The notes beneath the pieces were generated by a model. That model was not told the DNA's origin. It searched no databases and saw nothing but the letters and a program-made list of their open reading frames with translations. From positions 438,296-462,295 of the forward strand of contig NZ_JAGIXS010000002.1 of the NCBI RefSeq assembly GCF_030014915.1: a stretch of 24,000 bases of DNA. Reading direction: 5' to 3'. Position numbers and translations under genes: made by a program. This DNA comes from Pelomonas sp. V22 (GTDB taxonomy: Bacteria > Pseudomonadota > Gammaproteobacteria > Burkholderiales > Burkholderiaceae_C). Below, in pieces: positions 9,919-20,791 of this stretch. Position 1 is the first letter of the stretch; the number at the start of each line of letters is the position of its first letter.

Positions 9919-10695
9919 ATGACCACACCTGCGTTCCCTGCCCGCCGCCTGGCCACGCTGGGCTTGCTGGGCCTGGCATTGCCGCCACTGCAGGCGGCGC
10001 CTGGACGAAGCCTGCGCATGGTGCGCTCCGAATGGCCACCCTATCTCTACACCACAGGCGGCCGCCAGGGTGGGCTGGACGTGGAGCTGATCGAGGCCGT
10101 GCTGCAGCGCGCCGGCTGCAAGCTTGTGATGGTGGACGAAACGCCACGCCGCCGCCGCATCCAGATGATCGCGGCCGGCGAGCTGGACCTGGTGCCGGCG
10201 GCCACCCCTGCCGAGCACCGCCAGGCCGAAGTCTGGTTCACGGCACCCTACCGGCAGGAGTGGTTCGGCCTGCTGAGCCTCGCGTCTCGCCAGCAGGAGT
10301 TCGCCCGGCTGAACTCCTTCAGCGAGCTGATCACCCGCCGCCTGACCGTGCTGGCGCCCAAGTTCCGAATGGGCGGCGAGTTCGACAGCCTGGTGGAGCG
10401 CTTGAGCGCCGCACGCCTGATCGAGCACTACGACAGCGCTCGCAAGGGCCTAGCCATGCTGCAACGCGACCGGGGCGCGCTGATACTCGGCGACATACCG
10501 ACACAGCAGTTCCTGGGCCAGGCCGAGGGCACGCCGCTTACCCGCGTGCCGCTGCCGGAACAGCGTGAGCCGGTCAGCCTGATGCTGAGCCGCCAGACCG
10601 TCTCTGCCGAGTTGCTCGCGCAGATCAACGCGGCGATCGCGGCCCTCGAAGCGGACGGCACGCTGCCGGTCATCCGCAAGCGCTACGGCTTCTGA
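9919..10695 (+). CDS. periplasmic solute-binding protein, family 3 (PBPb-like), orphan
   Basis: Signal peptide MTTPAFPARRLATLGLLGLALPPLQAAPG. The pattern MVRSEWPPYLY...GLDVELIEAVLQRAGCKLVMVDETP..R...IAAGELDLVPAAT is typical of SBP_bac_3 proteins. No permease or ATPase gene is adjacent. Confidence 0.8.
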   Translation: MTTPAFPARRLATLGLLGLALPPLQAAPGRSLRMVRSEWPPYLYTTGGRQGGLDVELIEAVLQRAGCKLVMVDETPRRRRIQMIAAGELDLVPAATPAEHRQAEVWFTAPYRQEWFGLLSLASRQQEFARLNSFSELITRRLTVLAPKFRMGGEFDSLVERLSAARLIEHYDSARKGLAMLQRDRGALILGDIPTQQFLGQAEGTPLTRVPLPEQREPVSLMLSRQTVSAELLAQINAAIAALEADGTLPVIRKRYGF

Positions 10696-11453
10696 GCGAG
10701 GCGCGACGCCAGAGCGGCGATGCGGCCCGGCTGCGGGTCCAGCAGCCGCTGGTCGTGTCGGTAGTCCTCGGTGACCTCGATGCGCCAGCCTTGACGATCA
10801 AAGCGCCGGGCCAGCGCTGCCACGAGGTGGTCGAAGCTCAGCGCCGATTCGGCATTGCTGTCCAAGTGCACCACCCGGCCGGCAACCGCTTCGTCCTGCA
10901 ACAGGCCCAGCAAGGCCATGGCCGTTTCGGGCATGAAGGAACAAGCCGGTATCCAGCAGCGGCTGGCGGCGATGCGGCCCTGCTCGCGCTGCCAGTGGTC
11001 CAGCGTCGCGAGCATGTTGTTGCCCTGCGCGACCTCGTCGATCTGCCAACCGATGCGCGCAATGCGGGCCGTGGGGCAGGCCGCACGGATCGCATCCTCG
11101 GCGACGATCTTGAAGCGGCCGTAGTCGTCCTGCGCCGTGCGCTCGTCACCGGGGTGATGCGGGCCGTCCGGCTGATGGTGAAACACCATGGCCGTGCTGG
11201 TAAACAACAGGGGCAGATCTTGCCTCGCCGCGTACTCAGCCAGGCCCGACGCCCAGGCTGTCGGCCCCAGGGCCAGGTGGGCTATCGCATCCGGCCGGCT
11301 GGCCTGCAGGTGCGCCGCCACGGCGACCGCGTCGTCGGTCGGGATGCGCCGGCGGTCCCAGCCCAACACCTCCCAGCCGGCGCTGGCAGCCGTGCGGGCC
11401 AGATGCGGCGCCAGCGTGCCGCTGAGGCCGGTGATCAGCAAACGGCCCGGCAT
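10683..11453 (-). CDS. extended-SDR family NAD(P)-dependent reductase/epimerase (RmlD-like sugar-nucleotide-binding protein)
   Basis: N-terminal Rossmann LLITGLSGTLAPHL and a YxxxK catalytic motif (YGRFK). 256 aa. The start shares one base with the amylase stop (TGATG at 11451-11455). The 3' end overlaps the convergent SBP gene by 13 nt. Confidence 0.75.
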   Translation of the reverse strand: MPGRLLITGLSGTLAPHLARTAASAGWEVLGWDRRRIPTDDAVAVAAHLQASRPDAIAHLALGPTAWASGLAEYAARQDLPLLFTSTAMVFHHQPDGPHHPGDERTAQDDYGRFKIVAEDAIRAACPTARIARIGWQIDEVAQGNNMLATLDHWQREQGRIAASRCWIPACSFMPETAMALLGLLQDEAVAGRVVHLDSNAESALSFDHLVAALARRFDRQGWRIEVTEDYRHDQRLLDPQPGRIAALASRLAQKP

Positions 11454-12799
11454 CAGTGCCGGGTCCTTATGCTCCAGCCCCAGGGTGCCAGCTTGGCAGC
11501 CGCACCATCAAGAAGGTAGGACTGATCAGCCGCAGAAAGGTTGACCGCCACGGTCACCACATTGCCGCCCAGCTGGCGGCGGAAGGCAAAGACCTTGTCG
11601 TTGCCGGTCTCGAGCAGCTCGGCCGGCGCGCCGTACTGGCCATTGGCCAGGGCCGGGTTGTTCTTCTTCAGGGCCACAAGCTCGGCGTAGAAAGCCTGCA
11701 GCTCATAGCCCTTCCAGTCCACCAGGTCCTTCTCGAAGAAGGCCAGGCGCTTGTCGAGGCGCGACTCCTGGCCGCCGTAGATCAGCGGCATGCCGGGCAA
11801 GGTGAAGGTGAGCACGGCCAGCGCCTGGTAGGCCTCGCCATAGAGCTCGCGGTCCGTGCCGTGCCAGGAATTGAAGTCGTGGTTGCTGGTGAAGCGCATG
11901 CGGTAGGCATGACGCGGATAGACCTTCGGCGCCGTGCCTTCGTTCTGGGCCGTGAGCCAGGCGCGCATCTCGGCCGCCCCGGCCTGGCCCTTGCCCACGG
12001 CCTTGAAGACGTCAGCCAGGTCCCAGCTGTAGCTCATGTCGAAGGCGCTGCGATGCAGCTCGGGCTTGTCGGACTCGGCCAGCATGAACACCGGCTTGAT
12101 CGCATCGAGCTCGCGCCGCGCCCGCTCCCAGAAGTCGGAGGGCACGAGGCTGGCCACATCGCAGCGGAAGCCGTCCATGCCCACCTGCTGCAGCCAGAAG
12201 CTCATGGCTTCGATCATGGCCTTGCGCAGGGGCTCGCTGCGGTAGTCCAGGGCCACCACGTCGGTCCAGTACTCGGGCTCGGCACCTTCGGTGAACGTGA
12301 CCGGGAAGATCTCGCCCTTGTCGTTCAGCTTGTACCAATCCTTGTGCTGGCGGGTCCAGGGATGGTCCCAGGCCGTGTGGTTGGGCACCCAGTCAAGGAT
12401 CACCTTGAAGCCCAGCTCATGCGCGGCCTTCACCATCGCCTTGGCGTCGTCCAGCGTGCCGAACTCGGGATTCACCGCCGTGTAGTCGCTGATCGAGTAG
12501 TAGCTGCCGAGGCCGCCCTTGCGCTCCTGCTTGCCGATCGGCTGCAACGGCATGAACCAGAGGATGTCCACGCCCAGCTTGCGGATGCGTGGCAGATCGC
12601 GGGCAAAGGCCTTCAGCGTGCCCTCGGGCGTGTGCTGGCGGACGTTGACCTGGTAGATGCTGGACTGGCGCGACCAGGCCACATGGGGCATGTCGGACGC
12701 CGTGCCGGACACAGCGCTGCTGGATTGACTCATGGCGAACGGAGCGATGAAGGCGCAACAGGCCGCAAGGACCAGGGCGCGAAGCTGGGTGAAGGTCAT
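11453..12799 (-). CDS. exported GH13 alpha-amylase family glycoside hydrolase
   Basis: All four GH13 signature regions are visible: DWVPNH, GFRCDVA, FMLAES and FTSNHD. The N-terminal signal peptide MTFTQLRALVLAACCAFIAPFA has a possible LAAC lipobox or an AxA-type cleavage site. Confidence 0.9.
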   Translation of the reverse strand: MTFTQLRALVLAACCAFIAPFAMSQSSSAVSGTASDMPHVAWSRQSSIYQVNVRQHTPEGTLKAFARDLPRIRKLGVDILWFMPLQPIGKQERKGGLGSYYSISDYTAVNPEFGTLDDAKAMVKAAHELGFKVILDWVPNHTAWDHPWTRQHKDWYKLNDKGEIFPVTFTEGAEPEYWTDVVALDYRSEPLRKAMIEAMSFWLQQVGMDGFRCDVASLVPSDFWERARRELDAIKPVFMLAESDKPELHRSAFDMSYSWDLADVFKAVGKGQAGAAEMRAWLTAQNEGTAPKVYPRHAYRMRFTSNHDFNSWHGTDRELYGEAYQALAVLTFTLPGMPLIYGGQESRLDKRLAFFEKDLVDWKGYELQAFYAELVALKKNNPALANGQYGAPAELLETGNDKVFAFRRQLGGNVVTVAVNLSAADQSYLLDGAAAKLAPWGWSIRTRH

Positions 12800-12814
12800 G
12801 CGGCGCCCTGATCC

Positions 12815-14329
12815 CTAAATCTTGAGCGGCGGCGCCTTGCAATGCTGGGCGATGTAGGCCGAGTGCTCGGGCATCACGTCCACGCACTTGCCGATCACGT
12901 CACGCACGCCCTCGAGAAACTCCAGGATGCCGGCCTCGGTCTGCACATCCACCAGCGGGTGGTAGCCCTGCGTGGCCAGGTTCTGGCCTTCCATCACCTG
13001 CAGCCAGCCCACCTCGGTGAACAGCTCGTTGTTGAAGCGGAAGATCCGGCCGTGGCTGCGGTAGAGGTCCATCTTCTCCTTCAGCGTCTGCGGAATCTCC
13101 ATCGTCGCGCAGGCCTTCCAGAACTCCGAGTCGGTGCGCTGGTTCAGGTGGTAGTGCAGGATGATGAAGTCGCGGATGCGCTCGTAGTGGAAGCGGCTCT
13201 GGCGGTTGAATTCCTCGGTGTCGATGGCGCTGAAGCCCCGGTCCGGGAAGAAGTCGATCAGCTGCTGGATCGAGGCCTGGATCAGGTGGATGCTGGTCGA
13301 TTCCAGCGGTTCCAGGAAGCCGCTGGAGAGGCCGATGGCCACCACGTTCTTGTTCCAGCTCTTGCTGCGCATGCCGGTCTTGAACTTGATCATGCGCGGC
13401 TCGGCCAAGGCCTTGCCGTCGAGGTTGGCCAGCAGCGTCGCTGCGGCCTCGTCGTCGCTGATCGCGTTGCTGCAGTAGACATGGCCGTTGCCGATGCGGT
13501 GCTGCAGCGGGATGCGCCACTGCCAGCCGGCCTTGTGCGCGGTGGAGCGCGTGTAGGGCGTCAGCACCGGGGCAGACTCGCAGGGCACGGCGAGCGCGCG
13601 GTCGCAGGGAAGCCAGTGGGTCCAGTCCTCGTAGCCGGTCTGGAGCGTCTGTTCGATCAAGAGGCCGCGGAAGCCCGAACAGTCGATGAAGAGATCACCC
13701 TCGACACGCTCGCCACTTTCCAGCACCACGGCGTCGATGTGGCCATCGCCCTCGCGCTGCGTGGCATGCGAGATCTTGCCTTCGGTGCGCAGCACGCCGC
13801 GCTGCTCCGAGAGCTTGCGCAGGTAGCGCGCGTAGAGGCTGGCGTCGAAGTGGTAGGCGTAGGCAATCTCGCCCAGCGGCGAGTTCGGCAGATCGGTCTG
13901 GGCCGGCAGGAACTTGTTGGCCTTGGAGGCCATGCGGGTGATCGAGTACTCCTCCAGCGGCGCCGCCTTACCGGCGGCGCGCATCTTGCGCCAGTACTGC
14001 TCGAAGGGCACGGTCCAGAGGTCCTGGCCCACGCGGCCGAAGCCGTGCATGTAGCGATCGCCGAGTTGCCCCCAGTTGACGAACTCGATGCCCAGCTTGA
14101 ACGTGCCCTGCGTCTCGCGCATGAACTCGTTTTCGTCGAGGCCGATGGTCTTGTTGAAGCGCTGGATCATCGGGATCGTCGCTTCGCCGACACCGACGAT
14201 GCCGATTTCATCGGACTCGACGAGCCGAATCTTGAAGCGGCCACGCAACACCGTGGCCATGGCCACGGCCGTCATCCAGCCGGCCGTGCCGCCACCAACG
14301 ATGACGACGGTCTTGATGGGGGTTTGCAT
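12815..14329 (-). CDS. flavin-dependent halogenase family protein ('tryptophan halogenase' homologue, TBDT-associated type)
   Basis: GGGTAG FAD fold (14279-14296), WxWxIP motif as WQWRIP (13508-13525), FKLGIEFVNW (catalytic-Lys region) and GFLEPLESTS (catalytic-Glu region). No signal peptide. AGGA lies 6 nt before the ATG at 14329. The track ORF extends to a TTG at 14353. Confidence 0.9.
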   Translation of the reverse strand: MQTPIKTVVIVGGGTAGWMTAVAMATVLRGRFKIRLVESDEIGIVGVGEATIPMIQRFNKTIGLDENEFMRETQGTFKLGIEFVNWGQLGDRYMHGFGRVGQDLWTVPFEQYWRKMRAAGKAAPLEEYSITRMASKANKFLPAQTDLPNSPLGEIAYAYHFDASLYARYLRKLSEQRGVLRTEGKISHATQREGDGHIDAVVLESGERVEGDLFIDCSGFRGLLIEQTLQTGYEDWTHWLPCDRALAVPCESAPVLTPYTRSTAHKAGWQWRIPLQHRIGNGHVYCSNAISDDEAAATLLANLDGKALAEPRMIKFKTGMRSKSWNKNVVAIGLSSGFLEPLESTSIHLIQASIQQLIDFFPDRGFSAIDTEEFNRQSRFHYERIRDFIILHYHLNQRTDSEFWKACATMEIPQTLKEKMDLYRSHGRIFRFNNELFTEVGWLQVMEGQNLATQGYHPLVDVQTEAGILEFLEGVRDVIGKCVDVMPEHSAYIAQHCKAPPLKI

Positions 14330-14377
14330 GCTCATTCCTGCTTGCCTCGACAAGCCGGCGACGCGCCGGCCGTTGAT

Positions 14378-14411
14378 AAAAAAACCCCCGCAGGCCTGAG
14401 CCGGGCGGGGG
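14378..14411 (-). terminator. rho-independent terminator downstream of the TonB-dependent receptor
   Basis: On the minus strand, CCCCCGC...GCGGGGG (7-bp GC stem plus an inner GGC/GCC stem) is followed directly by TTTTTTT. It lies 19 nt after the TBDT stop codon and upstream of the halogenase-like gene. Confidence 0.75.
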
Positions 14412-14429
14412 TCAAGTCGAGGAGCTCTT

Positions 14430-17300
14430 TTACAGCTTGTAGTTGATGCCGAACAGATAGGTCTTGCCGTACTTGATCGTGTCGGTGATCGCGTTCGGGT
14501 CAGAGTTGTAGCGCTGGAACTTCGAGTTCGTCATGTTGTTGCCCTGAGCCAGCAGCGACAGGCCCTTCAACCAGCCGGACTGGAACTCGTAAGACAGCTG
14601 CAGGTCGACAATCGACTCGCCCTTGATGAAGGTGAGCTGGCGGTTGTCCTGGAAGTCGCTGACCTCACCCAGGAAGTCCGAGCGCTTGCGCTGGGCCACG
14701 GCGATCTGGAAGCCGGCCTTCTCGTAGTAGAAGCGCAGGTTGGTGACCTTCTTCGACAGGCCCGGCAGCGGGATCTTGATCGTGCCGACGTTCTCCACCG
14801 AGAAGCCCGCGGTGGGCAGCTCGACCGAGCTCGAGGTGTTCGAGTGGTTCAGCATGACGCCGAAGCCATCGAGCCACGAGGACACGAAGTTCAGGGGCAC
14901 GTTGATCGCCAGTTCGATGCCGCGGATGTTGCCACCCTCGCCATTGATCGGCTGGTTCAGCAGGCCGACGGTCGAACCCTTGTTGGGGCCGGTGGTCGGC
15001 AGCGGCGTGTTGGCGCTGGTGTAGGGCTTGAAGTCGAACAGCGTGGGCACGCGCAGGATGTAGCTGTCGAGCTTCTTGTAGAAGCCGGCGGCACTGAAGT
15101 AGCCCTTGCTGCCGAAGTACTTCTCGTAGGAAACGTCAACGGCCTTGGCGCGGAAAGGGTTCAGCTTCGGGTTGCCACCGTCGCCGGTCAGGATCTGCGA
15201 GCCGGTGTTGTTCACCGAGTAACCCAGGCTGGCACGCATGTCGTTCATGTTGGCCCGCGACAGCACCTTGGCTGCGGCGAAGCGCATCACCTGGTCGCCG
15301 CCCAGGTCGAAGTTCATGTTCAGGCTGGGCAGGAAGTCGGTGTAGGTCTTGCCTTGTGCCACCGTGGCACCCGGGCAGGTGGCCGCCGTGTTGCCCGTGC
15401 AGCTTGCACGATCGACGTTGAAGCCGGTCGACTCCTGGTTCGTGTGCACCAACTGGGCACCCACGTTGCCGCGGTAGTTCAGGCCGAACAGCTCACCATC
15501 GAGGTCGCCCTTGAAGTAGCCGGTCGTGACCTTTTCCTGGACGCTCCAGTCCTTGTTCAGGATGTCGGAGTCGACCTTCTTGGCCAGGTCATAAACAGTG
15601 CCCAGCGAACCGCGCGGATCCCAGGACACCACCTGCAGGCCCGTCGTGCCGGCGATGGCAATGTCCGAACCCGGCACCGTGGCGGCACCGTAAGGGTCAT
15701 TGCCCTTGATGACCAGGCGACCTTCCTGGGTCTGGCGGATCTTCTCGCGGCTCGTGTAGTTCACGCCGAACTCGCCGGCCACGATGGGGCCCCAACGCAG
15801 CTCGGTCTTGCCCGAGAGGCGCAGGCTGTCGATCTTGTCCTGCACATGAGGCAGGGCCACATAGCCGGCCTGCGGCGAGGATTCGCCACCGGACCAGCCG
15901 TCCACGTCCGTCAGCTTGGCAACGGCGCGGTCGGCGTAGCTCAGGCTGGTCGAGTACTTCACGTCGGTGAAGTTGGAGCCGTTGAAACCGGTCCAGCTGA
16001 TCGAGCCCAGGCCGGCGGCACTCTTGTTGCCATTGCCAGGCTGACCGGCGGTGGTTTCGTAGCGCGAGGAGTCACGCACCACACGCGACTGCGACAGATC
16101 GGCCAGCAAGGTCCAGTCCGCCACCTTCAGCTTGTTGTTCCAGCCCCAGGACTTCAGGCTGTCGTCGCCGCCCTCGACGTGGTTGCGCACCACGCCCTTG
16201 TAGTTGGACAGCGTGCCCGAGGCCACAACGCCATTGGCGATCGTGTAGTTGGTGATCTGGCCGCGCGGGTCGTAGGAGGCGTTGTCGTCGTCACCAATGG
16301 CGCCTTCCAGGCCGGTCTTCTTCAAGCCGAAACGGCCCTTGGAATAGAAGTAGTCGAAGGTCGACTCGAAGTCCTTGTTGGGCTTCCACTGCAGCGTGGC
16401 CATGCGGCCTTCGCGGGTGGCGGTGCTGGTCTCGGTGTCAGCGGTGAAGCCACCGATCACATTGACCTTGCCAACGCCAGAGGTGCAACCGGCCGGGGGC
16501 GTCGGGCCGTCGCAGGCCAGCAACGGCGAGCCGGCAGCGCCACTCGGCGCAAACGGCAGCGTCCAGCCGCCCCAGGAATTGAACTTCTGCTGGTCGGCGC
16601 CCTTCTCGTCGAACTTGACCAGACCCAGGGCCACACCGATGGTGCGGTCGGCGAACTGGTCGATGTAGCTGACCGACTTGCGCGTGCCCGTGCCCTCACC
16701 GGCACCCGAAGCCACGCCGGTGCGCTGCTTGCGGTAATTGACGGCAGCCTGGCGCTCCTTGAAGTTCAGCGGACGCACCGTCTGCAGGTCGATGGTCGAG
16801 GCGAGACCCTGCCCGACGAGGGCGCCGTCCGGGCTCTTGTAGATCAGGACCGAGGCCAGCAGTTCGGACGGATACAGGTCGAACTCGACGCCACGGCTGT
16901 CGCCGCTGGACGCTTGTTCGCGGCCGTTAAGCAGAGCGCCGTTGAAGTCGGGCGACATGCCGCGCACGCTGACGCTGGAGGCCTTGCCGGTGGACTTGTT
17001 GCGCTGCGAGGCCACACCCGGCAGGCGCGAAACCGACTCGGCCACCGAAGCGTCGGGCAGCTTGCCGATGTCTTCGGCCGAGATCGCTTCGATGATGGAG
17101 TCCGAGCCTTTCTTGGCCGAGATCGCGTCTTCGATGCCCTTGCGGATGCCGGTGACGGTCACCGTCTCCAGGGTCTGGGCTGGCGGCGTGGTGGCCGGGG
17201 CCGTCTGGGCGTAGACGCCACTGGCCACCATGAGCACCGCACAGCCGGCGACCACCGGGCTGAGACGGAACTGCTCATGCTTCTGTCGGGATGTCTTCAT
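14430..17300 (-). CDS. TonB-dependent outer-membrane receptor (oligosaccharide/maltodextrin-type by context)
   Basis: 956 aa. Signal peptide ...AVLMVASGVYAQ, a TonB-box-like ETVTVTG, plug-domain motifs (IEAISAEDIGKLPDASVAESVSRLPGV; VSVRGMSPDFNGALLNGRE) and a long beta-barrel region. AGGAGA Shine-Dalgarno 7 nt upstream. No N-terminal signalling extension. Confidence 0.95.
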   Translation of the reverse strand: MKTSRQKHEQFRLSPVVAGCAVLMVASGVYAQTAPATTPPAQTLETVTVTGIRKGIEDAISAKKGSDSIIEAISAEDIGKLPDASVAESVSRLPGVASQRNKSTGKASSVSVRGMSPDFNGALLNGREQASSGDSRGVEFDLYPSELLASVLIYKSPDGALVGQGLASTIDLQTVRPLNFKERQAAVNYRKQRTGVASGAGEGTGTRKSVSYIDQFADRTIGVALGLVKFDEKGADQQKFNSWGGWTLPFAPSGAAGSPLLACDGPTPPAGCTSGVGKVNVIGGFTADTETSTATREGRMATLQWKPNKDFESTFDYFYSKGRFGLKKTGLEGAIGDDDNASYDPRGQITNYTIANGVVASGTLSNYKGVVRNHVEGGDDSLKSWGWNNKLKVADWTLLADLSQSRVVRDSSRYETTAGQPGNGNKSAAGLGSISWTGFNGSNFTDVKYSTSLSYADRAVAKLTDVDGWSGGESSPQAGYVALPHVQDKIDSLRLSGKTELRWGPIVAGEFGVNYTSREKIRQTQEGRLVIKGNDPYGAATVPGSDIAIAGTTGLQVVSWDPRGSLGTVYDLAKKVDSDILNKDWSVQEKVTTGYFKGDLDGELFGLNYRGNVGAQLVHTNQESTGFNVDRASCTGNTAATCPGATVAQGKTYTDFLPSLNMNFDLGGDQVMRFAAAKVLSRANMNDMRASLGYSVNNTGSQILTGDGGNPKLNPFRAKAVDVSYEKYFGSKGYFSAAGFYKKLDSYILRVPTLFDFKPYTSANTPLPTTGPNKGSTVGLLNQPINGEGGNIRGIELAINVPLNFVSSWLDGFGVMLNHSNTSSSVELPTAGFSVENVGTIKIPLPGLSKKVTNLRFYYEKAGFQIAVAQRKRSDFLGEVSDFQDNRQLTFIKGESIVDLQLSYEFQSGWLKGLSLLAQGNNMTNSKFQRYNSDPNAITDTIKYGKTYLFGINYKL

Positions 17301-17494
17301 TTCTTGTCTCCTGAAGCTTTTCTAACAACACAAGCCCCGCAACGATCTGGGAGTAGTTCTTGTCGGGGAACCGAGAACCTGTAATTTGCAAGAATTCTGT
17401 ACTAAAACTAGATCGACTGCCAATACAAAGAAAACCCTAGCGAAGCTCAATTCATCGATGTTTTGCGGAAAAACGACTGATAAAACATGGGTTA

Positions 17495-17533
17495 ACCCTT
17501 TGTTTCCGGCCAAACATCAAACAAACAAAGGGT
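17495..17533 (-). terminator. possible terminator/stem-loop after glk (11-bp arms)
   Basis: ACCCTTTGTTT (17495-17505) is the exact reverse complement of AAACAAAGGGT (17523-17533), with a 17-nt loop. On the minus strand it sits about 40 nt after the glk stop and is followed by ...CAUGUUUUAUC, a weak U-tract. It is AT-rich and alternative pairings exist. Confidence 0.3.
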
Positions 17534-17550
17534 AAATACCTGTCTTGATA

Positions 17551-17565
17551 TGTAGCTCAACTACA
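17551..17565. promoter_or_regulatory. HexR-like operator candidate A (TGTAGCTCAACTACA)
   Basis: TGTA-N7-TACA dyad with 5-bp perfect arms (TGTAG/CTACA), in the AT-rich region between the glk stop and the TBDT start. Confidence 0.45.
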
Positions 17566-17572
17566 AACAAGC

Positions 17573-18550
17573 TCAGACCTGCTCCAGCGCCAGGGCGGCG
17601 CCACTGAGGGCGGCCAGGGTGTCGGTGATGAGGACAGTAGGCACGGCCTCCAGGTAAGAGCGGAAGCGCCCCTTGGCCTCGAAGCGCTCGCGGAAGCGCG
17701 AGGCAAAGAAGCGGTCACCCAGCCTCGGCACGATGCCGCCGCCGATGTAGACGCCGCCACGCGCACCCAGCGTCAGGGCCACGCTGCCGGCAAAGCCGCC
17801 GAGCAAGGCACAGAACACGTCCAGGGTCTGGGCACACGAGGCATCCTGGCCGGCGATACCGTTCTCGACGATCTGCTCCGCCGCCAGGGGCGCCGCCAGC
17901 GCCTGCCCACCGAGGCGAGCGACGGCCGCATGCAGCACCGGCAGGCCGATGCCGGACAGCAGGCGCTCGGCCGACACATGGGCATGCTCGCGCCGCACCA
18001 GGGCCAGCAGCTCGCTCTCGAAATCGTCGGCCGGCGCCAGCGTGGCATGGCCGCCCTCGCCCGGCAGCGCCACCCAGCCATGAGCGGTCTGGATCACACC
18101 GCCCACACCCAGGCCGGTGCCCGGGCCGATGACCGCCAGCGTGCCCTGCGGTGTCGGCAGGCCACCCGATCCGCGCAACTGGTCGGGCCGCAGACGCGGC
18201 AGCGACAAGGCCAGCGCCTCGAAGTCATTCAGCACCAGCAGGCGCTCCAGGCCCAAGCCCTCGCGCGCCGCCGCTATGGAGAAGCCCCAGGGGCTGTTGG
18301 TGAACTCCACCATGTCGCCGGCCACGGCCGTGGCCACGGCCACCGCCGCATGACGGGGCCGCAGCGGCCGCGCATCGGCGCCGCCGGGCAGCCCCTCCAG
18401 ATAGGCCTCCACCGCCTCGGCCAGCCCCGCATGGGCAGCAACCGGCAGGCTGCGCACATGAAGAATCGGACCGCCCGCCCGCTCGACCAGGCCAAACCGG
18501 GCATTGCTGCCGCCCACATCGGCCACCAGGCACAAACCATCCCGATTCAT
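17573..18550 (-). CDS. glk: glucokinase (stand-alone)
   Basis: MNRDGLCLVADVGGSNARFGL..., LNDFEA, GPGTGLGVGG, PGEGGH, VSAERLLSG and GGGIVPRLGDRFFASRFRERFEAKGRF align along the full length with E. coli Glk as I recall it. GAGG lies 8 nt upstream of the ATG at 18550. The track ORF start at 18613 adds a non-homologous leader. Confidence 0.9.
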   Translation of the reverse strand: MNRDGLCLVADVGGSNARFGLVERAGGPILHVRSLPVAAHAGLAEAVEAYLEGLPGGADARPLRPRHAAVAVATAVAGDMVEFTNSPWGFSIAAAREGLGLERLLVLNDFEALALSLPRLRPDQLRGSGGLPTPQGTLAVIGPGTGLGVGGVIQTAHGWVALPGEGGHATLAPADDFESELLALVRREHAHVSAERLLSGIGLPVLHAAVARLGGQALAAPLAAEQIVENGIAGQDASCAQTLDVFCALLGGFAGSVALTLGARGGVYIGGGIVPRLGDRFFASRFRERFEAKGRFRSYLEAVPTVLITDTLAALSGAALALEQV

Positions 18551-18634
18551 GGACGCACCTCGGCGCAGAGAGGGGCACGGAGCCCAGCAAGACGACACAT
18601 AGACAGGAGGCACACAGGAATGGGAAGTTGATAA

Positions 18635-18649
18635 GGTAGCAAAACTACA
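18635..18649. promoter_or_regulatory. HexR-like operator candidate B (GGTAGCAAAACTACA)
   Basis: It has one mismatch to the TGTA-N7-TACA core. It lies inside the spacer of a possible minus-strand promoter (TTGATG-17-TATCAA) about 85 nt upstream of glk. Confidence 0.4.
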
Positions 18650-18710
18650 TCATCAAGACAAGCGTACTAGGCCTTACTCTGTACATTGCCCGGTAAACGG
18701 TCAAAGTTCA

Positions 18711-18727
18711 ATGTAGCCCAGCTACAT
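18711..18727. promoter_or_regulatory. HexR-like operator candidate C (ATGTAGC-CCA-GCTACAT, perfect 7-bp arms)
   Basis: Perfect 17-bp dyad containing TGTA-N7-TACA, located in the divergent glk / glk-hexR intergenic region. Confidence 0.5.
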
Positions 18728-18877
18728 TTATCGGCGTATGGTGGGCGCTGCGGTCCTGTTGGGGCCGCGCAGATCTGCGGCCTCGGGCGCCCATGCGCCG
18801 GGGCCGTGCCCTCGGACGGTGCGCAATTGCGGCTCATAATCGCGCGCCGCCCGCTCCACAGGTCCGTCCCGCCCGCC

Positions 18878-20791
18878 ATGACCTCTTTCGACAGCCCCCG
18901 ACTCATTGCCGACATCGGCGGTACCTATGCGCGTTTCGCGCTGGAGACCTCTCAGGGCGAGTTCAGCCAGATCGCCTCGCTGCGCTGCGCCGAGCATGCG
19001 GACTTCCACGCGGCGGTCAGCAACTATCTGCAGATGCTGCCGGCCGGCACCGAGGTGCGGCATGCGGCGATAGCGATTGCCAACCCGGTCGAGGGCGACT
19101 CGGTGCGCATGACCAACTACCACTGGCAGTTCTCCATCGAGGAGATGCGCCAGCGCCTCGGCTTCGACACGCTGGTGGTGGTCAACGACTTCACCGCCCT
19201 CGCCATGGCCGTGCCGCGCCTGCGCCCCAGCGACCTGCGCCAGATCGGCGGCGGCGAGCCGCGCCGGCAGAGCGTGGTGGGCGTGCTGGGCTCGGGCTCG
19301 GGCCTCGGCACCTCGGGCCTGATCCCGGTCGGCGAAGGCTGGATCTCGCTGGGCGCCGAGGGCGGCCACACCAGCTTCTCGCCGCGCGACGAGCGCGAGA
19401 TCGACATCCTGCGCTTTGCCTGGCAGCAGTTCGAGCATGTGTCCTTCGAGCGCCTGGTCTCGGGCCCCGGCCTGGAACTGATCTATCGCGCCCTCGCGCA
19501 GCGGGCCGGCGCTGCCGCCGCTCCGCTGGCCGCGCCGGACATCACCCAGCGCGCGCTCGACGAAAGCGACGCCGTCTGCGTCGAGGCGCTGGACATGTTC
19601 TGCGCCCTGCTCGGCACAGCCGCTGCCAACCTGGCGGTGACGCTGGGGGCGCTGGGCGGCATCTACATCGGCGGCGGCATCGTCCCGCGCCTGGGTGCGT
19701 ACTTCGACCGTTCGCGCTTCCGCGCGCGCTTCGAGGACAAGGGCCGTTTCCGCGACTATGTGGCCGGCATCCCCACCTATGTGATCACCGCCGAGCAGGC
19801 CACGTTCATGGGCGCCTCGGCCATCCTGGACGCCCAGCTGCGCACCCTGGAGAGCACGCCCGGCTCGGCCATCCTCGGCCAGATCCGCCGCGCCCGCAGC
19901 GAGCTTTCGCCGGCCGAGCTGCGCGTGGCCGAGCATGTGCTTGCCCATCCGCGCGACGTGCTGAACGACCCCATCATTGAGATCGCCAAGGCCGCGCAGG
20001 TCAGCCAACCGACGGTGATCCGCTTCTGCCGCTCGCTGGGCTGCGAAGGCCTGTCGGACTTCAAGCTGCGTCTCGCCTCGGGCCTCACCGGCACGGTGCC
20101 GGTCACGCACACCCAGGTGATGCAGGACGACTCGGTGGTCGAGCTCGGCGCCAAGGTGCTGGGCAACACGGCCTCGGCCATCCTGCAGGTGCGCAGCGAA
20201 CTGAACCGCGAAATGATCGACCGCGCCATCGAGCTGCTGCTGAACGCCAACCGCATCGAGTTCTTCGCCGTCGGCCATTACGGCGTGGTGGCGCAGGACG
20301 CGCAGTTCAAGTTCCTGCGCTTCGGCGTCTCGAGCAGCGCCTACACCGACCCACGCCTGCAGGCCCTGGCCGCCGGCGTGCTGGGCCCGCGCGACGTGGC
20401 CGTCATCATCAGTTCGAGCGGCAAGCTGCCCGAGTTGCTCGAGGTGGCCGACAAGGCGCGCGAGCGCGGCGCCGCCGTCGTGGCCATCACGGCCAGCCAG
20501 TCGCCGCTGGCGCGCAAGGCCGATGCCACGCTGATCGTCGACCATGTGGAAGACGTCTCCACCCACCTGCCCATGATCAGCCGCATCCTGCACCTGCTGG
20601 TGATCGACATCCTGGCCGTGGGCGTGGCCATGCGCCGCCATGCCGACGGCGTGCAGGCCCTCGGCGGCAATGCCGATGCGGCGCTGGACGAAGCCGAGCC
20701 GAGCCCGGCCGCCGCGCCCACGGCCAAGCGGGCCGCGCCTGGCATCAGCATGGCTTCGCCGCTGTCCAAGTTGACCTCGCACAGCCGCTGA
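18878..20791 (+). CDS. hexR: bifunctional glucokinase / RpiR(HexR)-family transcriptional regulator fusion protein
   Basis: The N-terminal roughly 330 aa is a second full-length glucokinase (LIADIGGTYARFAL, VNDFTA, GSGSGLG, AEGGH, VSFERLVSG, GGGIVPRLGAYFDRSRFRARFEDKGRF). It is followed by an RpiR HTH (ELSPAELRVAEHVLAHP...IAKAAQVSQPTVIRFCRSLG), a SIS domain (IEFFAVGHYGVVAQDAQFKF...VIISSSGKLPELLEVA...VVAITAS) and an Ala/Pro-rich tail. The ATG at 18878 gives a Glk-like N-terminal spacing. Confidence 0.9.
   Translation: MTSFDSPRLIADIGGTYARFALETSQGEFSQIASLRCAEHADFHAAVSNYLQMLPAGTEVRHAAIAIANPVEGDSVRMTNYHWQFSIEEMRQRLGFDTLVVVNDFTALAMAVPRLRPSDLRQIGGGEPRRQSVVGVLGSGSGLGTSGLIPVGEGWISLGAEGGHTSFSPRDEREIDILRFAWQQFEHVSFERLVSGPGLELIYRALAQRAGAAAAPLAAPDITQRALDESDAVCVEALDMFCALLGTAAANLAVTLGALGGIYIGGGIVPRLGAYFDRSRFRARFEDKGRFRDYVAGIPTYVITAEQATFMGASAILDAQLRTLESTPGSAILGQIRRARSELSPAELRVAEHVLAHPRDVLNDPIIEIAKAAQVSQPTVIRFCRSLGCEGLSDFKLRLASGLTGTVPVTHTQVMQDDSVVELGAKVLGNTASAILQVRSELNREMIDRAIELLLNANRIEFFAVGHYGVVAQDAQFKFLRFGVSSSAYTDPRLQALAAGVLGPRDVAVIISSSGKLPELLEVADKARERGAAVVAITASQSPLARKADATLIVDHVEDVSTHLPMISRILHLLVIDILAVGVAMRRHADGVQALGGNADAALDEAEPSPAAAPTAKRAAPGISMASPLSKLTSHSR

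Follow-up and report, generated by a model that had tools for sequence, protein, structure and literature searches.

Gene organization of the locus

The window, by which we mean the whole 24-kb stretch of DNA that was analyzed, carries on its minus strand a row of genes that runs from a TonB-dependent receptor (TBDR) through a terminator-like hairpin and a halogenase, the second gene of the row, to an exported GH13 enzyme and an SDR-like gene. The receptor gene (14430..17300, minus strand) encodes a 956-aa protein with a signal peptide and a Pfam Plug domain and belongs to the TonB-Xanth-Caul subfamily (TIGR01782, 558.6 bits against a cut-off of 310). The halogenase gene (12815..14329, minus strand; ATG at 14329, stop codon at 12815-12817) encodes a 504-aa protein of Pfam family PF04820 that lacks a signal peptide, because its open frame extends only 8 codons upstream and no longer N-terminus is possible; an exported halogenase is ruled out both by the absence of such a peptide and by the lack of space for one. 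Fifteen nucleotides separate the halogenase stop from the start of the GH13 alpha-amylase-family gene (11453..12799, minus strand; PF00128 at 7.8e-35), whose product carries the signal peptide MTFTQLRALVLAACCAFIAPFAMS, and a 1-nt overlap (TGATG) joins the GH13 stop to the start of the last gene, which encodes an SDR/RmlD-like reductase (10683..11453, minus strand; PF04321 and PF01370). These neighbors agree with a preliminary description of the sequence, in which the halogenase was flanked by a TBDR, with a terminator between the two, and by an exported GH13 enzyme 15 nt downstream.

On the 5' side of the receptor gene and on the same strand lies a glucokinase gene (17573..18613, minus strand; PF02685 at 6e-98, NCBIfam glk), followed by a divergent glucokinase-RpiR/SIS (HexR-like) fusion (18686..20791, plus strand; Pfam Glucokinase, HTH_6 and SIS domains), which is a candidate local regulator and scores 813 bits against NF010701, under the cut-off of 920. 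The arrangement resembles the CUT loci and MalA-type maltodextrin TBDR systems (Blanvillain et al. 2007, PMC1790865), in which a Xanthomonas/Caulobacter-type TBDR adjoins a CAZyme of matching specificity, here GH13, and the nearby glucokinase and candidate regulator add to the likeness; no inner-membrane sugar transporter was found in the window, however, which would be at most a partial CUT locus. As had been noted before, there is no flavin reductase, NRPS/PKS or tryptophan-pathway gene among the ORFs of the 24-kb window. Generic flavin reductases normally suffice for flavin-dependent halogenases. The same window holds no biosynthetic genes, no ORF matching SapC (PF07277) or JOR/JmjC (Cupin_8), and no Rfam match.

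The gap between receptor and halogenase measures 100 nt and holds a hairpin with a T7 run (14378..14413, minus strand) that resembles an intrinsic terminator and may act as an attenuator. The hairpin folds at a dG of -23.2 kcal/mol (z -3.74), a stability equaled by 0 of 200 shuffles, and was found by reading and folding the sequence; the consensus terminator scan missed it because the outer stem encloses more than 8 bases, the scan's loop maximum. Of 63 related loci, 41 have an equivalent hairpin and T-run of different sequence, as do 4 of the 7 distant loci tested, namely the alphaproteobacterial L084, L085 and L088 and Lysobacter L087. Transcription would begin 5' of the TBDR gene, where an AT-rich region of 272 nt (17301..17572, minus strand) includes, as consensus matches only, an imperfect inverted repeat (17482-17546) and the sole promoter-like match within the scanned interval 10400-18900 (17394-17423), itself no better than shuffles. 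A promoter may also lie in the 48 nt before the halogenase start codon. Assuming read-through, a strong and presumably leaky terminator at this position would cut the levels of halogenase, GH13 enzyme and SDR relative to an abundant receptor.

The halogenase retains the catalytic signature of its family

The PF04820 (Trp_halogenase) profile matches the window protein over profile positions 2-456 of 458 (E=2.5e-199, 663.3 bits against a cut-off of 21), bearing out at full length the proposal that it is a halogenase homolog; NCBIfam has no model specific to it. The translation contains the four motifs quoted in the preliminary description, all encoded on the minus strand, which that description had left unmentioned: GGGTAG, the GxGxxG FAD-binding motif (residues 12-17; 14279..14296), FKLGIEFVNW (residues 77-86; 14072..14101), WQWRIP, the WxWxIP motif (residues 269-274), which lies exactly at 13508..13525 as reported, and EPLEST (residues 340-345; 13295..13312). 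The catalytic Lys/Glu pair claimed there is likewise in place: when residues are counted along the ungapped HMMER alignment with PrnA (2APG), Lys78 (codon at 14096..14098, minus strand) falls on catalytic PrnA K79, equivalent to BrvH K83, and Glu343, the second Glu of EPLEST (codon at 13301..13303, minus strand), falls on catalytic PrnA E346 within E346-S347-T348-G349. We aligned 95 sequences, comprising locus homologs, paralogs and five PDB references, and found G12, G13, G14 and G17 to be identical in all 95, Lys78 and Glu343 to be present in 93 each, and the WxWxIP residues W269, W271 and P274 to be kept in 94, 93 and 91, respectively. Alignment to characterized enzymes confirms the window gene as that of an apparently intact flavin-dependent halogenase homolog with the catalytic Lys/Glu pair in place.

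The aromatic pocket is similarly recognizable. His95 and Phe97 of HGFG (14036..14047, minus strand) correspond to PrnA H101 and F103, which stack on the indole ring, and the segment matches the 'HxFG' motif of group C (PMC8269204); H95, F97 and G98 are invariant over three orthologue groups and all intact TBDR-linked homologs examined. The protein also contains ATIPMI and HGFGR, which correspond to the group C motifs ATIPxx and HxFGx in the motif table of the same study (PMC8269204). Toward the C-terminus, a short 13-residue loop (residues 424-436) leads into E435-x-F437...W442 (13004..13063, minus strand). The loop matches the short loop of BrvH without gaps, PrnA being longer there in the same alignment, and E435, F437 and W442 are invariant across the three orthologue groups (alignment A1).

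Placement in the BrvH/Xcc4156 group

Its best sequence matches in the PDB are 9LUQ, 6Y1W and 6FRL, which score 490-550 bits where PrnA scores 292, a ranking that contradicts the earlier assignment to the PrnA/RebH type. Foldseek searches with an AF2 model (pLDDT 91.5) return the same three proteins as structural neighbors (9LUQ, Xcc4156 and BrvH; TM 0.93-0.98, rmsd 1.4-1.8 A, 47-49% identity), whereas PyrH, RebH and PrnA share 30-33% identity with the window protein in the structural alignment; in sequence alignment the identity to PrnA is about 39%, and HMMER extends its alignment to PrnA no further than residue 425. A rough neighbor-joining tree clusters the window halogenase with BrvH and Xcc4156 as well. 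With PrnA, RebH, PyrH and Thal the protein has in common the fold, GxGxxG, WxWxIP, the catalytic Lys and Glu and the indole-stacking His/Phe pair, but the 13-residue loop takes the place of the long one with which those enzymes hold the tryptophan amino and carboxyl groups, and a TBDR locus that of their biosynthetic-cluster context (prnABCD). In RebH, the tryptophan amino and carboxyl groups are bound by Y454, Y455, E461 and F465 (the 'Trp4' motif), which group C lacks (PMC8269204, PMC5945002); the BrvH/Xcc4156 group as a whole is without the loop that binds the amino-acid part of tryptophan (PMC5945002, PMC8269204). We rejected a PrnA/RebH-type tryptophan halogenase on this replacement, and both the alignments and the predicted model assign the protein to the BrvH/Xcc4156 'indole halogenase' group.

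Among these relatives, Xcc4156 of Xanthomonas campestris pv. campestris B100 (PDB 6Y1W) comes closest in structure (TM 0.95-0.98, rmsd 1.4 A, 47% identity) and shares the catalytic and indole-contacting residues and the short loop with the window protein. A 99%-identical relative of Xcc4156 is encoded right after a TIGR01782 TBDR. The Xcc4156-type module reads TBDR-SapC-Cupin_8-halogenase-TonB_C with no glycoside hydrolase in the row, in contrast to the window module, which lacks SapC, Cupin_8 and TonB_C and runs on into GH13. BrvH (Brevundimonas sp. BAL3 / Botany Bay metagenome; PDB 6FRL) is 47% identical (TM 0.93-0.96), and the locus of a 96%-identical relative, GH3-TBDR-halogenase-halogenase-LacI, is a TBDR-led glycan locus like the present one, although it is alphaproteobacterial, of beta-glucoside type and equipped with a second, tandem halogenase. 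BrvH has a demonstrated activity, the conversion of indole to 3-bromoindole. The top sequence score among solved structures, 550 bits, belongs to a Pseudoalteromonas sp. L11 'tryptophan halogenase' (PDB 9LUQ, released 2026-02-11; 48-49% identity, TM 0.93-0.96), for which we found neither a paper nor a genomic context.

Conservation of the receptor-halogenase pairing

Across genomes the TBDR linkage of these halogenases is strongly conserved. A TBDR leads the halogenase in 65 of the 69 related loci with enough flank; it is directly upstream in 58, and in the other 7 only a GH13 gene or another halogenase gene intervenes. The halogenases are on average 72.6% identical, as against 54.2% for the receptors, and the two values co-vary (Spearman 0.74). 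An adjacent TBDR is also present in 11 of 11 distant contexts from Alpha-, Beta- and Gammaproteobacteria, among them the loci that encode close relatives of Xcc4156 and BrvH, and 9 of 10 partner receptors belong to TIGR01782; the prnABCD control locus has no TBDR. The proposal that TBDR-linked halogenases recur in carbohydrate loci of many Proteobacteria is well supported by these counts. A single TBDR-linked halogenase clade was nevertheless rejected, as a second TBDR-linked lineage, 'HALa', branches near PrnA in the rough tree.

The glycan-related neighbors are more variable. Around the orthologues we find GH13, GH31, pullulanase, MFS or ABC sugar transporters, LacI, glucokinase and PGM, while GH95 or fucosidase genes directly adjoin related halogenase genes, and distant TBDR-halogenase loci carry GH3, GH20, GH95, GH43/GH9, GH68 or fucosidase genes. 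The order glk-TBDR-halogenase is kept in Roseateles-type loci, nine of which also preserve GH13-SDR synteny. GH13 as a direct neighbor is kept only within this Roseateles-type subset, so that of the conserved TBDR/glycoside hydrolase neighborhood proposed earlier the receptor part holds broadly and the amylase part locally: the broader constant of these loci is the TBDR, not the amylase. SapC and Cupin_8 are present in Xcc4156-type loci. Tandem arrays of 2-5 halogenase paralogs also exist, and some of their members are catalytically dead (L079, L091).

Discussion

Iyer et al. 2010 (PMC2938197) had already delineated and interpreted the neighborhood of a TBDR with one to three halogenases, SapC and JmjC (with or without a 2OG oxygenase), describing a TonB-class receptor adjoining halogenases with a Rossmann fold and a catalytic Lys in a widespread and laterally mobile association. 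The window gene adds one more member to this known arrangement, and the novelty first attributed to it was overstated, given that description and the biochemical characterization of clade members. It differs in consisting of the minimal pair only, with the TBDR 100 nt upstream on the same strand, and in that the receptors are of the TonB-Xanth-Caul type and lie beside glycoside hydrolase genes, which the siderophore interpretation of the 2010 study does not fit. Besides that study, the literature on a receptor-halogenase link yielded only an incidental note on Colwellia co-expression of CPS_3734 and CPS_3737. TonB is not mentioned in three papers on BrvH/Xcc4156-type enzymes (PMC7336383 and PMC8269204 among them), nor is a halogenase in Blanvillain et al. 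2007 (PMC1790865), one example of how proteobacterial TBDR glycan-uptake studies largely ignore the neighboring halogenase gene. Enzymes of the BrvH/Xcc4156 type are meanwhile studied as biocatalysts, yet are 'orphans' as to their native substrate. Here the earlier statement that no TBDR-linked halogenase has an assigned substrate or role stands for native substrate and role, but not otherwise, as Xcc4156 and BrvH have crystal structures and brominate indoles in vitro. The present data join the two literatures, in that the close relatives of the orphan enzymes and the window gene are members of TIGR01782 receptor modules. Such modules span Alpha-, Beta- and Gammaproteobacteria and adjoin genes for glycoside hydrolases of widely differing specificity.

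We consider it probable, with some reservation, that the window gene encodes a cytoplasmic, two-component halogenase of the BrvH/Xcc4156 clade that serves as an accessory gene of a TIGR01782 receptor in an alpha-glucan operon of a Roseateles-like betaproteobacterium and makes a small haloaromatic. By analogy with its relatives and from its conserved residues, we infer that the enzyme is catalytically competent. FADH2 supplied by a generic reductase would first combine with O2, and subsequent reaction with halide would yield hypohalous acid. The WxWxIP block would hold the substrate away from the flavin, and Lys78 and Glu343 would direct the halogen to whichever carbon is richest in electrons in a small planar aromatic lodged between His95 and Phe97; this family chemistry is supported by residue conservation and by the in vitro activity of homologs. 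The substrate is probably neither free tryptophan nor a glycan, since the protein lacks the loop for binding the amino-acid part and this chemistry does not act on sugars. A glycan was rejected also because the same module occurs with at least 7 glycoside hydrolase families while the aromatic pocket stays invariant. Our best guess would be a small C3-unsubstituted indole or a phenol- or aniline-type compound, and production of a haloaromatic, or modification of an aromatic, would then be coupled to glycan foraging. BrvH and the Xcc enzymes brominate indoles but not tryptophan and have an open active site (PMC5945002, PMC7336383); BrvH accepts small indoles, hexylresorcinol and anthranilate and refuses indoles with larger C3 substituents (PMC7754283), and with Xcc4156 and Xcc1333 no bromination of Trp amides is seen (PMC10099709). 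The homologs show little activity in vitro, and the authors who characterized them question whether indole is what they act on natively. Further points weigh against the haloaromatic reading. No source of indole or phenol is evident in the starch locus, and it is hard to see from a small-molecule substrate why every receptor locus should have its own halogenase, or why arrays of 2-5 paralogs exist. Roseateles and Massilia, moreover, are freshwater or soil bacteria with little bromide, the halide that the characterized relatives prefer.

The enzyme might instead be an obligate functional partner of TIGR01782 receptors, acting through a halogenated cofactor or signal or through modification of the machinery, a reading that we regard as unlikely. 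Were it true, deletion of the halogenase would impair or deregulate TonB-dependent glycan uptake, and proteobacterial glycan loci would carry an unrecognized enzymatic accessory for which the Bacteroidota SusC/SusD paradigm offers no counterpart. A little less likely again is that the halogenase handles aromatics that enter with the glycan, such as aglycones of plant or algal glycosides or toxic phenolics or indoles, in a locus-specific detoxification or salvage: several loci carry GH3 beta-glucosidases, BrvH takes phenolics and anthranilate (PMC7754283), and the gene layout suggests that the halogenase is co-transcribed with glycosidases, but the module also accompanies aglycone-free substrates (starch, chitin oligomers, fructan), the indole-contacting residues are invariant across glycan specificities, which points to one common aromatic, and halogenation is no usual route of detoxification. 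The model of Iyer et al. 2010, in which the halogenase builds a halogenated, amino-acid-derived, siderophore-like metabolite that the adjacent TBDR imports, has the original interpretation of the neighborhood in its favor (PMC2938197), and we confirm the layout for the Xcc4156 group. We nevertheless hold it improbable, since the partner receptors are of the TIGR01782 rather than the siderophore type and lie beside glycoside hydrolase genes, the loci hold LacI regulators and sugar transporters in addition, the window module is without SapC, JmjC, NRPS, exporter or iron-related gene, and a chelator cannot be built by one enzyme alone.

That the protein no longer halogenates in vivo, being a repurposed flavoprotein scaffold or regulator or a functionless genomic hitch-hiker, is suggested by the catalytically degenerate paralogs in tandem arrays (L079, L091), and no halometabolites are known from the host genera of these loci. 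Retention of every catalytic residue in the window protein and about 90 relatives, the higher conservation of the halogenase than of its receptor, the persistence of adjacency over three proteobacterial classes and the in vitro activity of members about 47% identical (PMC5945002, PMC7336383) make this quite improbable. Least probable in our estimation is that the halogenase, joined in the expanded modules by SapC and JmjC/Cupin_8, modifies some protein or peptide of the uptake system while this is still in the cytoplasm awaiting export; a Trp in the precursor of the TBDR or in a TonB-like protein would be an example. Among the non-enzyme partners only the TBDR is invariant, and each receptor locus has one halogenase set; the authors of the BrvH structure compared its open active site with the one in MibH, a peptide halogenase (PMC5945002), proteins are the usual targets of the partner family Cupin_8/JmjC (PMC2938197), and a TonB_C lipoprotein gene lies 3' of the Xcc4156-type halogenase. 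Against such a role, BrvH refuses Trp-like compounds along with indoles bearing larger C3 substituents (PMC7754283), and Xcc4156 and Xcc1333 leave Trp amides untouched (PMC10099709). The enzyme is cytoplasmic and the TBDR exported, the terminator should leave far less halogenase than receptor in the cell, these enzymes are slow, and a precursor-peptide ORF beside the halogenase was rejected, the 100-nt and 15-nt gaps being too small for one.

For the favored reading, that of an accessory halogenase acting on a small aromatic, the receptor linkage narrows the search for the substrate to cells induced by the cognate glycan, and the window offers a minimal, candidate inducible test system of three genes, the receptor, the halogenase and the amylase. 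Should the enzyme be needed for uptake, or make haloaromatics during polysaccharide foraging, this would bear on models of carbon turnover and on natural organohalogen production; if neither holds, the window gene is simply another member of a large family, which comprises 2,600 clusters at 50% identity with E<=1e-30.

The halogenase belongs with the indole halogenases

The halogenase gene occupies 12815-14329, as the preliminary description had it without naming the strand, which is minus; translation from 14329 to 12815 yields 504 residues with the N-terminus MQTPIKTVVIVGGGTAGW. The reading frame is open for just 8 codons upstream of the start, which leaves no room for a signal peptide, so that a cytoplasmic location is expected. 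All four motifs quoted in that description are found in the product, namely GGGTAG (residues 12-17), FKLGIEFVNW (residues 77-86), WQWRIP (residues 269-274, encoded exactly at 13508-13525 as proposed) and EPLEST (residues 340-345), and the Pfam search suggested there returned an end-to-end match to Trp_halogenase (PF04820, E=2.5e-199).

The proposed PrnA/RebH-type identity, on the other hand, did not survive comparison with solved structures. In a PDB sequence search the best matches were 9LUQ (550 bits), Xcc4156 (6Y1W, 520 bits) and BrvH (6FRL, 491 bits), the latter two being characterised indole halogenases, followed by LooH (306 bits), PrnA (292 bits) and RebH/Thal (about 277 bits). Foldseek gave the same ranking, with 48-49% identity to 9LUQ (from Pseudoalteromonas sp. 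L11, a structure released in February 2026), 47% to Xcc4156 at a TM of 0.95-0.98, and 47% to BrvH, versus 30-33% to PyrH, RebH and PrnA. The HMMER alignment with PrnA ends at residue 425, and residues 424-436 make up a loop of 13 residues that can be aligned gap-free with the short BrvH loop, whereas PrnA is longer across this stretch. The BrvH structure keeps the indole-ring contact residues but lacks the loop that would form hydrogen bonds with tryptophan's amino and carboxyl groups, which leaves the pocket open and the catalytic lysine solvent-exposed (PMC5945002). The enzyme is not a PrnA/RebH-type tryptophan halogenase, and its ATIPMI and HGFGR motifs place it among the 'group C, indole halogenases' defined in PMC8269204. 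Within this clade, BrvH converts indole to 3-bromoindole with a preference for bromide, accepts hexylresorcinol and anthranilate, and rejects tryptophan and indoles bearing larger C3 substituents (PMC5945002; PMC7754283); the Xanthomonas halogenases exclusively brominate, with native substrates termed 'unknown' (PMC7336383), and Xcc4156 fails to brominate Trp amides (PMC10099709).

This is a large family: 2,600 clusters (50% identity) reached E<=1e-30 in a full HMMER scan, and the best 150 all score above PrnA. Among sequences of the protein collection, the cluster representatives P0246 (984 aa), P0248 (736 aa) and P0255 (752 aa) far exceed 500 residues, and the first, with three separate matching stretches and its best match over residues 484-983, looks like a fused double halogenase. 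Another, P0402 (78% identical to BrvH), is listed under the fungus Friedmanniomyces endolithicus, as a hypothetical protein encoded on a contig of 2.6 kb; it is probably bacterial contamination of the fungal assembly.

Catalytic and pocket residues are conserved

In an ungapped HMMER alignment to PrnA (PDB 2APG), with positions counted one by one, Lys78 falls on PrnA K79 and Glu343, the second Glu of EPLEST, on E346, the following S-T matching S347-T348; His95 and Phe97 correspond to H101 and F103, the indole-ring sandwich of PrnA. Across 95 aligned sequences (five PDB references, the rest homologues and paralogues from 80 related loci) the three glycines of the FAD motif are invariant, Lys78, Glu343 and Trp271 are each kept in 93 and Trp269 in 94, and the sequences departing from the catalytic positions are clearly degenerate paralogues. 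His95 and Phe97, as well as the near-pocket residues Glu435, Phe437 and Trp442, are invariant in three distinct orthologue groups. An AlphaFold2 model made with a 35-sequence alignment is confident (mean pLDDT 91.5, pTM 0.90) and superposes on solved halogenases at 1.4-1.8 Å. Taken together, residue alignment, conservation and model uphold the claim of an intact catalytic signature, with neither the Lys nor the Glu misplaced.

A terminator-like hairpin separates receptor and halogenase

The same-strand gene order (all minus) begins with a stand-alone glucokinase (17573-18613) and continues with the TonB-dependent receptor (TBDR; 14430-17300, 956 aa, with signal peptide), the halogenase, a glycoside hydrolase of family GH13 with signal peptide (11453-12799), starting 15 nt past the halogenase, and an SDR/RmlD-like gene (10683-11453), its start sharing one base with the stop of GH13. 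The receptor and GH13 neighbours are thus as previously described, and flavin reductase, NRPS/PKS and tryptophan-pathway genes, reported missing, are likewise not found among the window ORFs.

The 100 nt from the TBDR stop to the halogenase start contain GACCCCCGC...GCGGGGGUU followed by U7, a terminator-like hairpin and T-run at 14378-14413 (dG -23.2 kcal/mol, z -3.74) that none of 200 shuffles matched in folding, and only 48 nt lie between the T-run and the start codon. Of 63 related loci, 41 have a hairpin with T-run in this position (crude start-codon calls account for some of the 22 negatives), as do 4 of 7 distant loci tested (alphaproteobacterial L084, L085 and L088, and Lysobacter L087). 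As the stems differ between loci, it is the position and not the sequence that is conserved. The genes after the halogenase are tightly packed (15-nt gap, 1-nt overlap), and from this layout we infer a single transcription unit that starts in the AT-rich stretch ahead of the TBDR and in which the terminator would attenuate transcription such that the halogenase and downstream enzymes are made in smaller amounts than the abundant receptor.

Two further repeats were noted. Between terminator and halogenase start, a second G+C-rich palindrome (14354-14371, GGCCGGCG-CGT-CGCCGGC), which lacks a T-run, may form another stem-loop or bind a protein. An imperfect inverted repeat of 24 nt (17482-17546, AAAACATGGGTTAACCCTTTGTTT / AAACAAAGGGTAAATACCTGTCTT), located in the AT-rich stretch that separates the glucokinase from the TBDR, may be the glk terminator or an operator. 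Back to back with the stand-alone glucokinase, a divergent second one (18686-20791) is fused, according to its Pfam domains, with an RpiR/HexR-type HTH-SIS regulator and scores 813 bits against NF010701, slightly below the cut-off of 920. As a pair, the two genes are a conserved feature ahead of the TBDR in Roseateles-type loci. The window has a G+C content of about 68%, and its left half carries unrelated housekeeping genes (alcohol dehydrogenase, LysR, molybdopterin enzyme, beta-lactamase-family protein, MarR, cytochrome bd, solute-binding protein). The minus strand also encodes, at 21624-23990, a large diguanylate cyclase (GGDEF, Reg_prop beta-propeller repeats, Y_Y_Y domain), ordinary in itself, though near the sugar locus.

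The receptor-halogenase pair is conserved across diverse loci

Relatives were sought in one genome per species, and the best 80 of the 584 found (63-93% identity) were analysed; these are from Roseateles/Pelomonas/Paucibacter, Massilia, Undibacterium, Limnohabitans, Rubrivivax and Ideonella, with a few Xanthomonadales. The closest, from Roseateles microcysteis MS17 (93%), lies in a locus syntenic with the window from the glucokinase genes to cytochrome bd. Conserved TBDR linkage was borne out: among the 69 loci for which 3 kb or more of upstream sequence was available, a receptor leads the halogenase in 65, either directly on the same strand (58), with GH13 in between (5) or with a second halogenase paralogue in between (L031 and L062), and 4 have no receptor in front. 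Locus L011 has the receptor-paralogue-halogenase layout too and is not among the 69, its halogenase being only 2.9 kb from the contig end. Conservation is higher for the halogenase (mean identity 72.6%) than for the receptor (54.2%), and the two identities co-vary (Spearman 0.74).

Conservation of the glycoside hydrolase neighbourhood held in part: a GH13 gene as direct neighbour is confined to the Roseateles-type subset, but a GH13-family gene occurs in the fetched flanks (up to 8 kb per side) of 54 of the 80 loci. Together with the recurrent alpha-glucan neighbours (GH31, pullulanase, MFS transporter, maltose-type ABC system, LacI, glucokinase, phosphoglucomutase), this assigns the orthologue group to starch/maltodextrin loci. 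An S9 peptidase, a DUF6445 protein, an esterase and a Na+/H+ exchanger-like protein also recur. The peptidase, of prolyl-oligopeptidase/DPP-IV type, directly follows the halogenase in about ten loci (L002, L004, L013, L014, L030, L034-L036, L050, L054), and another lies near the Xcc4156-type module of L081 (381-2609), in front of the TBDR and on the other strand. The DUF6445 protein (PF20043, E=2.6e-63, at L032:8760-9515) adjoins the halogenase in L032, L067, L072 and L078; its cluster c23 has 5 members in 5 loci, including L064, L067, L072 and L078, and it may be the second, 2OG-oxygenase-like partner of Iyer et al. 2010.

Distant contexts were collected by searching the protein collection with Xcc4156 and BrvH and looking up the encoding contigs, and by tblastn against annotated plasmids. 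A 99%-identical Xcc4156 relative in Xanthomonas lies in the order TBDR-SapC-Cupin_8-halogenase-TonB_C, and the Dyella-like (metagenome contig) and Lysobacter orthologues in TBDR-halogenase-SapC-Cupin_8-halogenase. A 96%-identical BrvH relative, Brevundimonas-like, is found in GH3-TBDR-halogenase-halogenase-LacI, an order shared by Sphingomonas with an added MFS gene. The order is TBDR-halogenase-IS element-halogenase in Caulobacter, TBDR-halogenase-GH95 in Asticcacaulis and TBDR-halogenase-MFS-ROK-GH20 in Pseudoalteromonas. The TBDR is divergent in Niveispirillum (four halogenases, GH43 and GH9 nearby) and Croceicoccus (halogenase abutting an alpha-L-fucosidase gene) and convergent with the halogenase in Hirschia (adjoined by LacI, GH68, MFS and ROK). 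A receptor is thus adjacent in all 11 distinct contexts, and the Burkholderia pyrrocinia pyrrolnitrin cluster prnABCD, used as control, has none beside it. Nine of ten partner receptors, including the window's, exceed the curated cut-off of TIGR01782 ('TonB-Xanth-Caul'). In L081, the product of the gene after the Xcc4156-type halogenase (10702-11709) has a TonB_C domain and a lipoprotein-like signal (…LLVGLAAC) and would provide a dedicated TonB-like partner for the receptor module.

The observation is real and its anatomy clean. Crystal structures and in vitro activities are already known for the enzyme clade, annotation as halogenase is routine in this huge family, and Iyer, Aravind and colleagues reported the receptor neighbourhood in 2010, pointing to the intact Rossmann fold and lysine and suggesting a siderophore-like halogenated product (PMC2938197). 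The word TonB was not found in the papers on BrvH/Xcc4156-type halogenases that were checked for it. Our analysis adds the link, through 96-99%-identical relatives, of these 'orphan' biocatalysis enzymes to TIGR01782 receptor modules, the breadth of accompanying GH families, the terminator conserved between the genes and a minimal form of the system with three genes, making the in vivo role of BrvH/Xcc4156-type enzymes more directly testable.

Proposed halogenation of a small aromatic alongside glycan uptake

By analogy with the PrnA/RebH mechanism (summarised in PMC5945002) and from the conserved residues, FADH2 supplied by a separate reductase would react with O2, halide attack would generate hypohalous acid, WxWxIP would hold the substrate apart from the flavin, and Lys78 and Glu343 would steer electrophilic halogenation of an aromatic ring gripped by His95 and Phe97. 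Absence of the amino-acid-binding loop makes free tryptophan an unlikely substrate, and the BrvH and Xcc4156 profiles favour small C3-unsubstituted indoles or phenol/aniline-type compounds over peptide or protein tryptophan. The aromatic-contacting residues are invariant among halogenases of alpha-glucan, beta-glucoside and SapC/JmjC-type modules, which argues for one common aromatic moiety rather than locus-specific aglycones. To our knowledge, sugars are not substrates of flavin-dependent halogenase chemistry. We consider the enzymology and receptor coupling, taken together, reasonably probable; on the strength of the missing loop, the invariant contacts and the characterised profiles, we tentatively propose, at somewhat short of an even chance, that the enzyme halogenates a small compound of indole or phenol type in the cytoplasm and is turned on along with glycan uptake.

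A halogenase that modifies a protein of the uptake machinery would suit the open active site, the JmjC partners and the strictness of the receptor pairing, but the terminator, the substrate data and the difference in cellular compartment speak against this role. Synthesis of a siderophore-like metabolite, as put forward by Iyer et al. 2010, sits poorly with the receptor subfamily and with the surrounding glycoside hydrolase, LacI and sugar-transporter genes. Processing of co-imported aglycones or toxic aromatics is at odds with the invariant pocket and with the occurrence of the module alongside starch, chitin and fructan genes as well. Loss of function is opposed by conservation. Small-molecule halogenation in the cytoplasm leaves unexplained the one halogenase set per receptor locus, the tandem arrays of up to five paralogues and the source of the aromatic substrate.

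Such arrays, each beside one TBDR, comprise five tandem paralogues in L079 (1965-9497; MAG Pseudomonadota, JAZKHP010000021.1) and four in L091 (4364-10488; Niveispirillum cyanobacteriorum plasmid NZ_CP025614.1). The catalytic Lys, WxWxIP and the EPLEST Glu are lost in L079 3515-4963 and 6496-7968 and in L091 5893-7326, and the placement of these degenerate copies between intact ones, with 4-nt start/stop overlaps, suggests putative heteromers of intact and degenerate halogenases.
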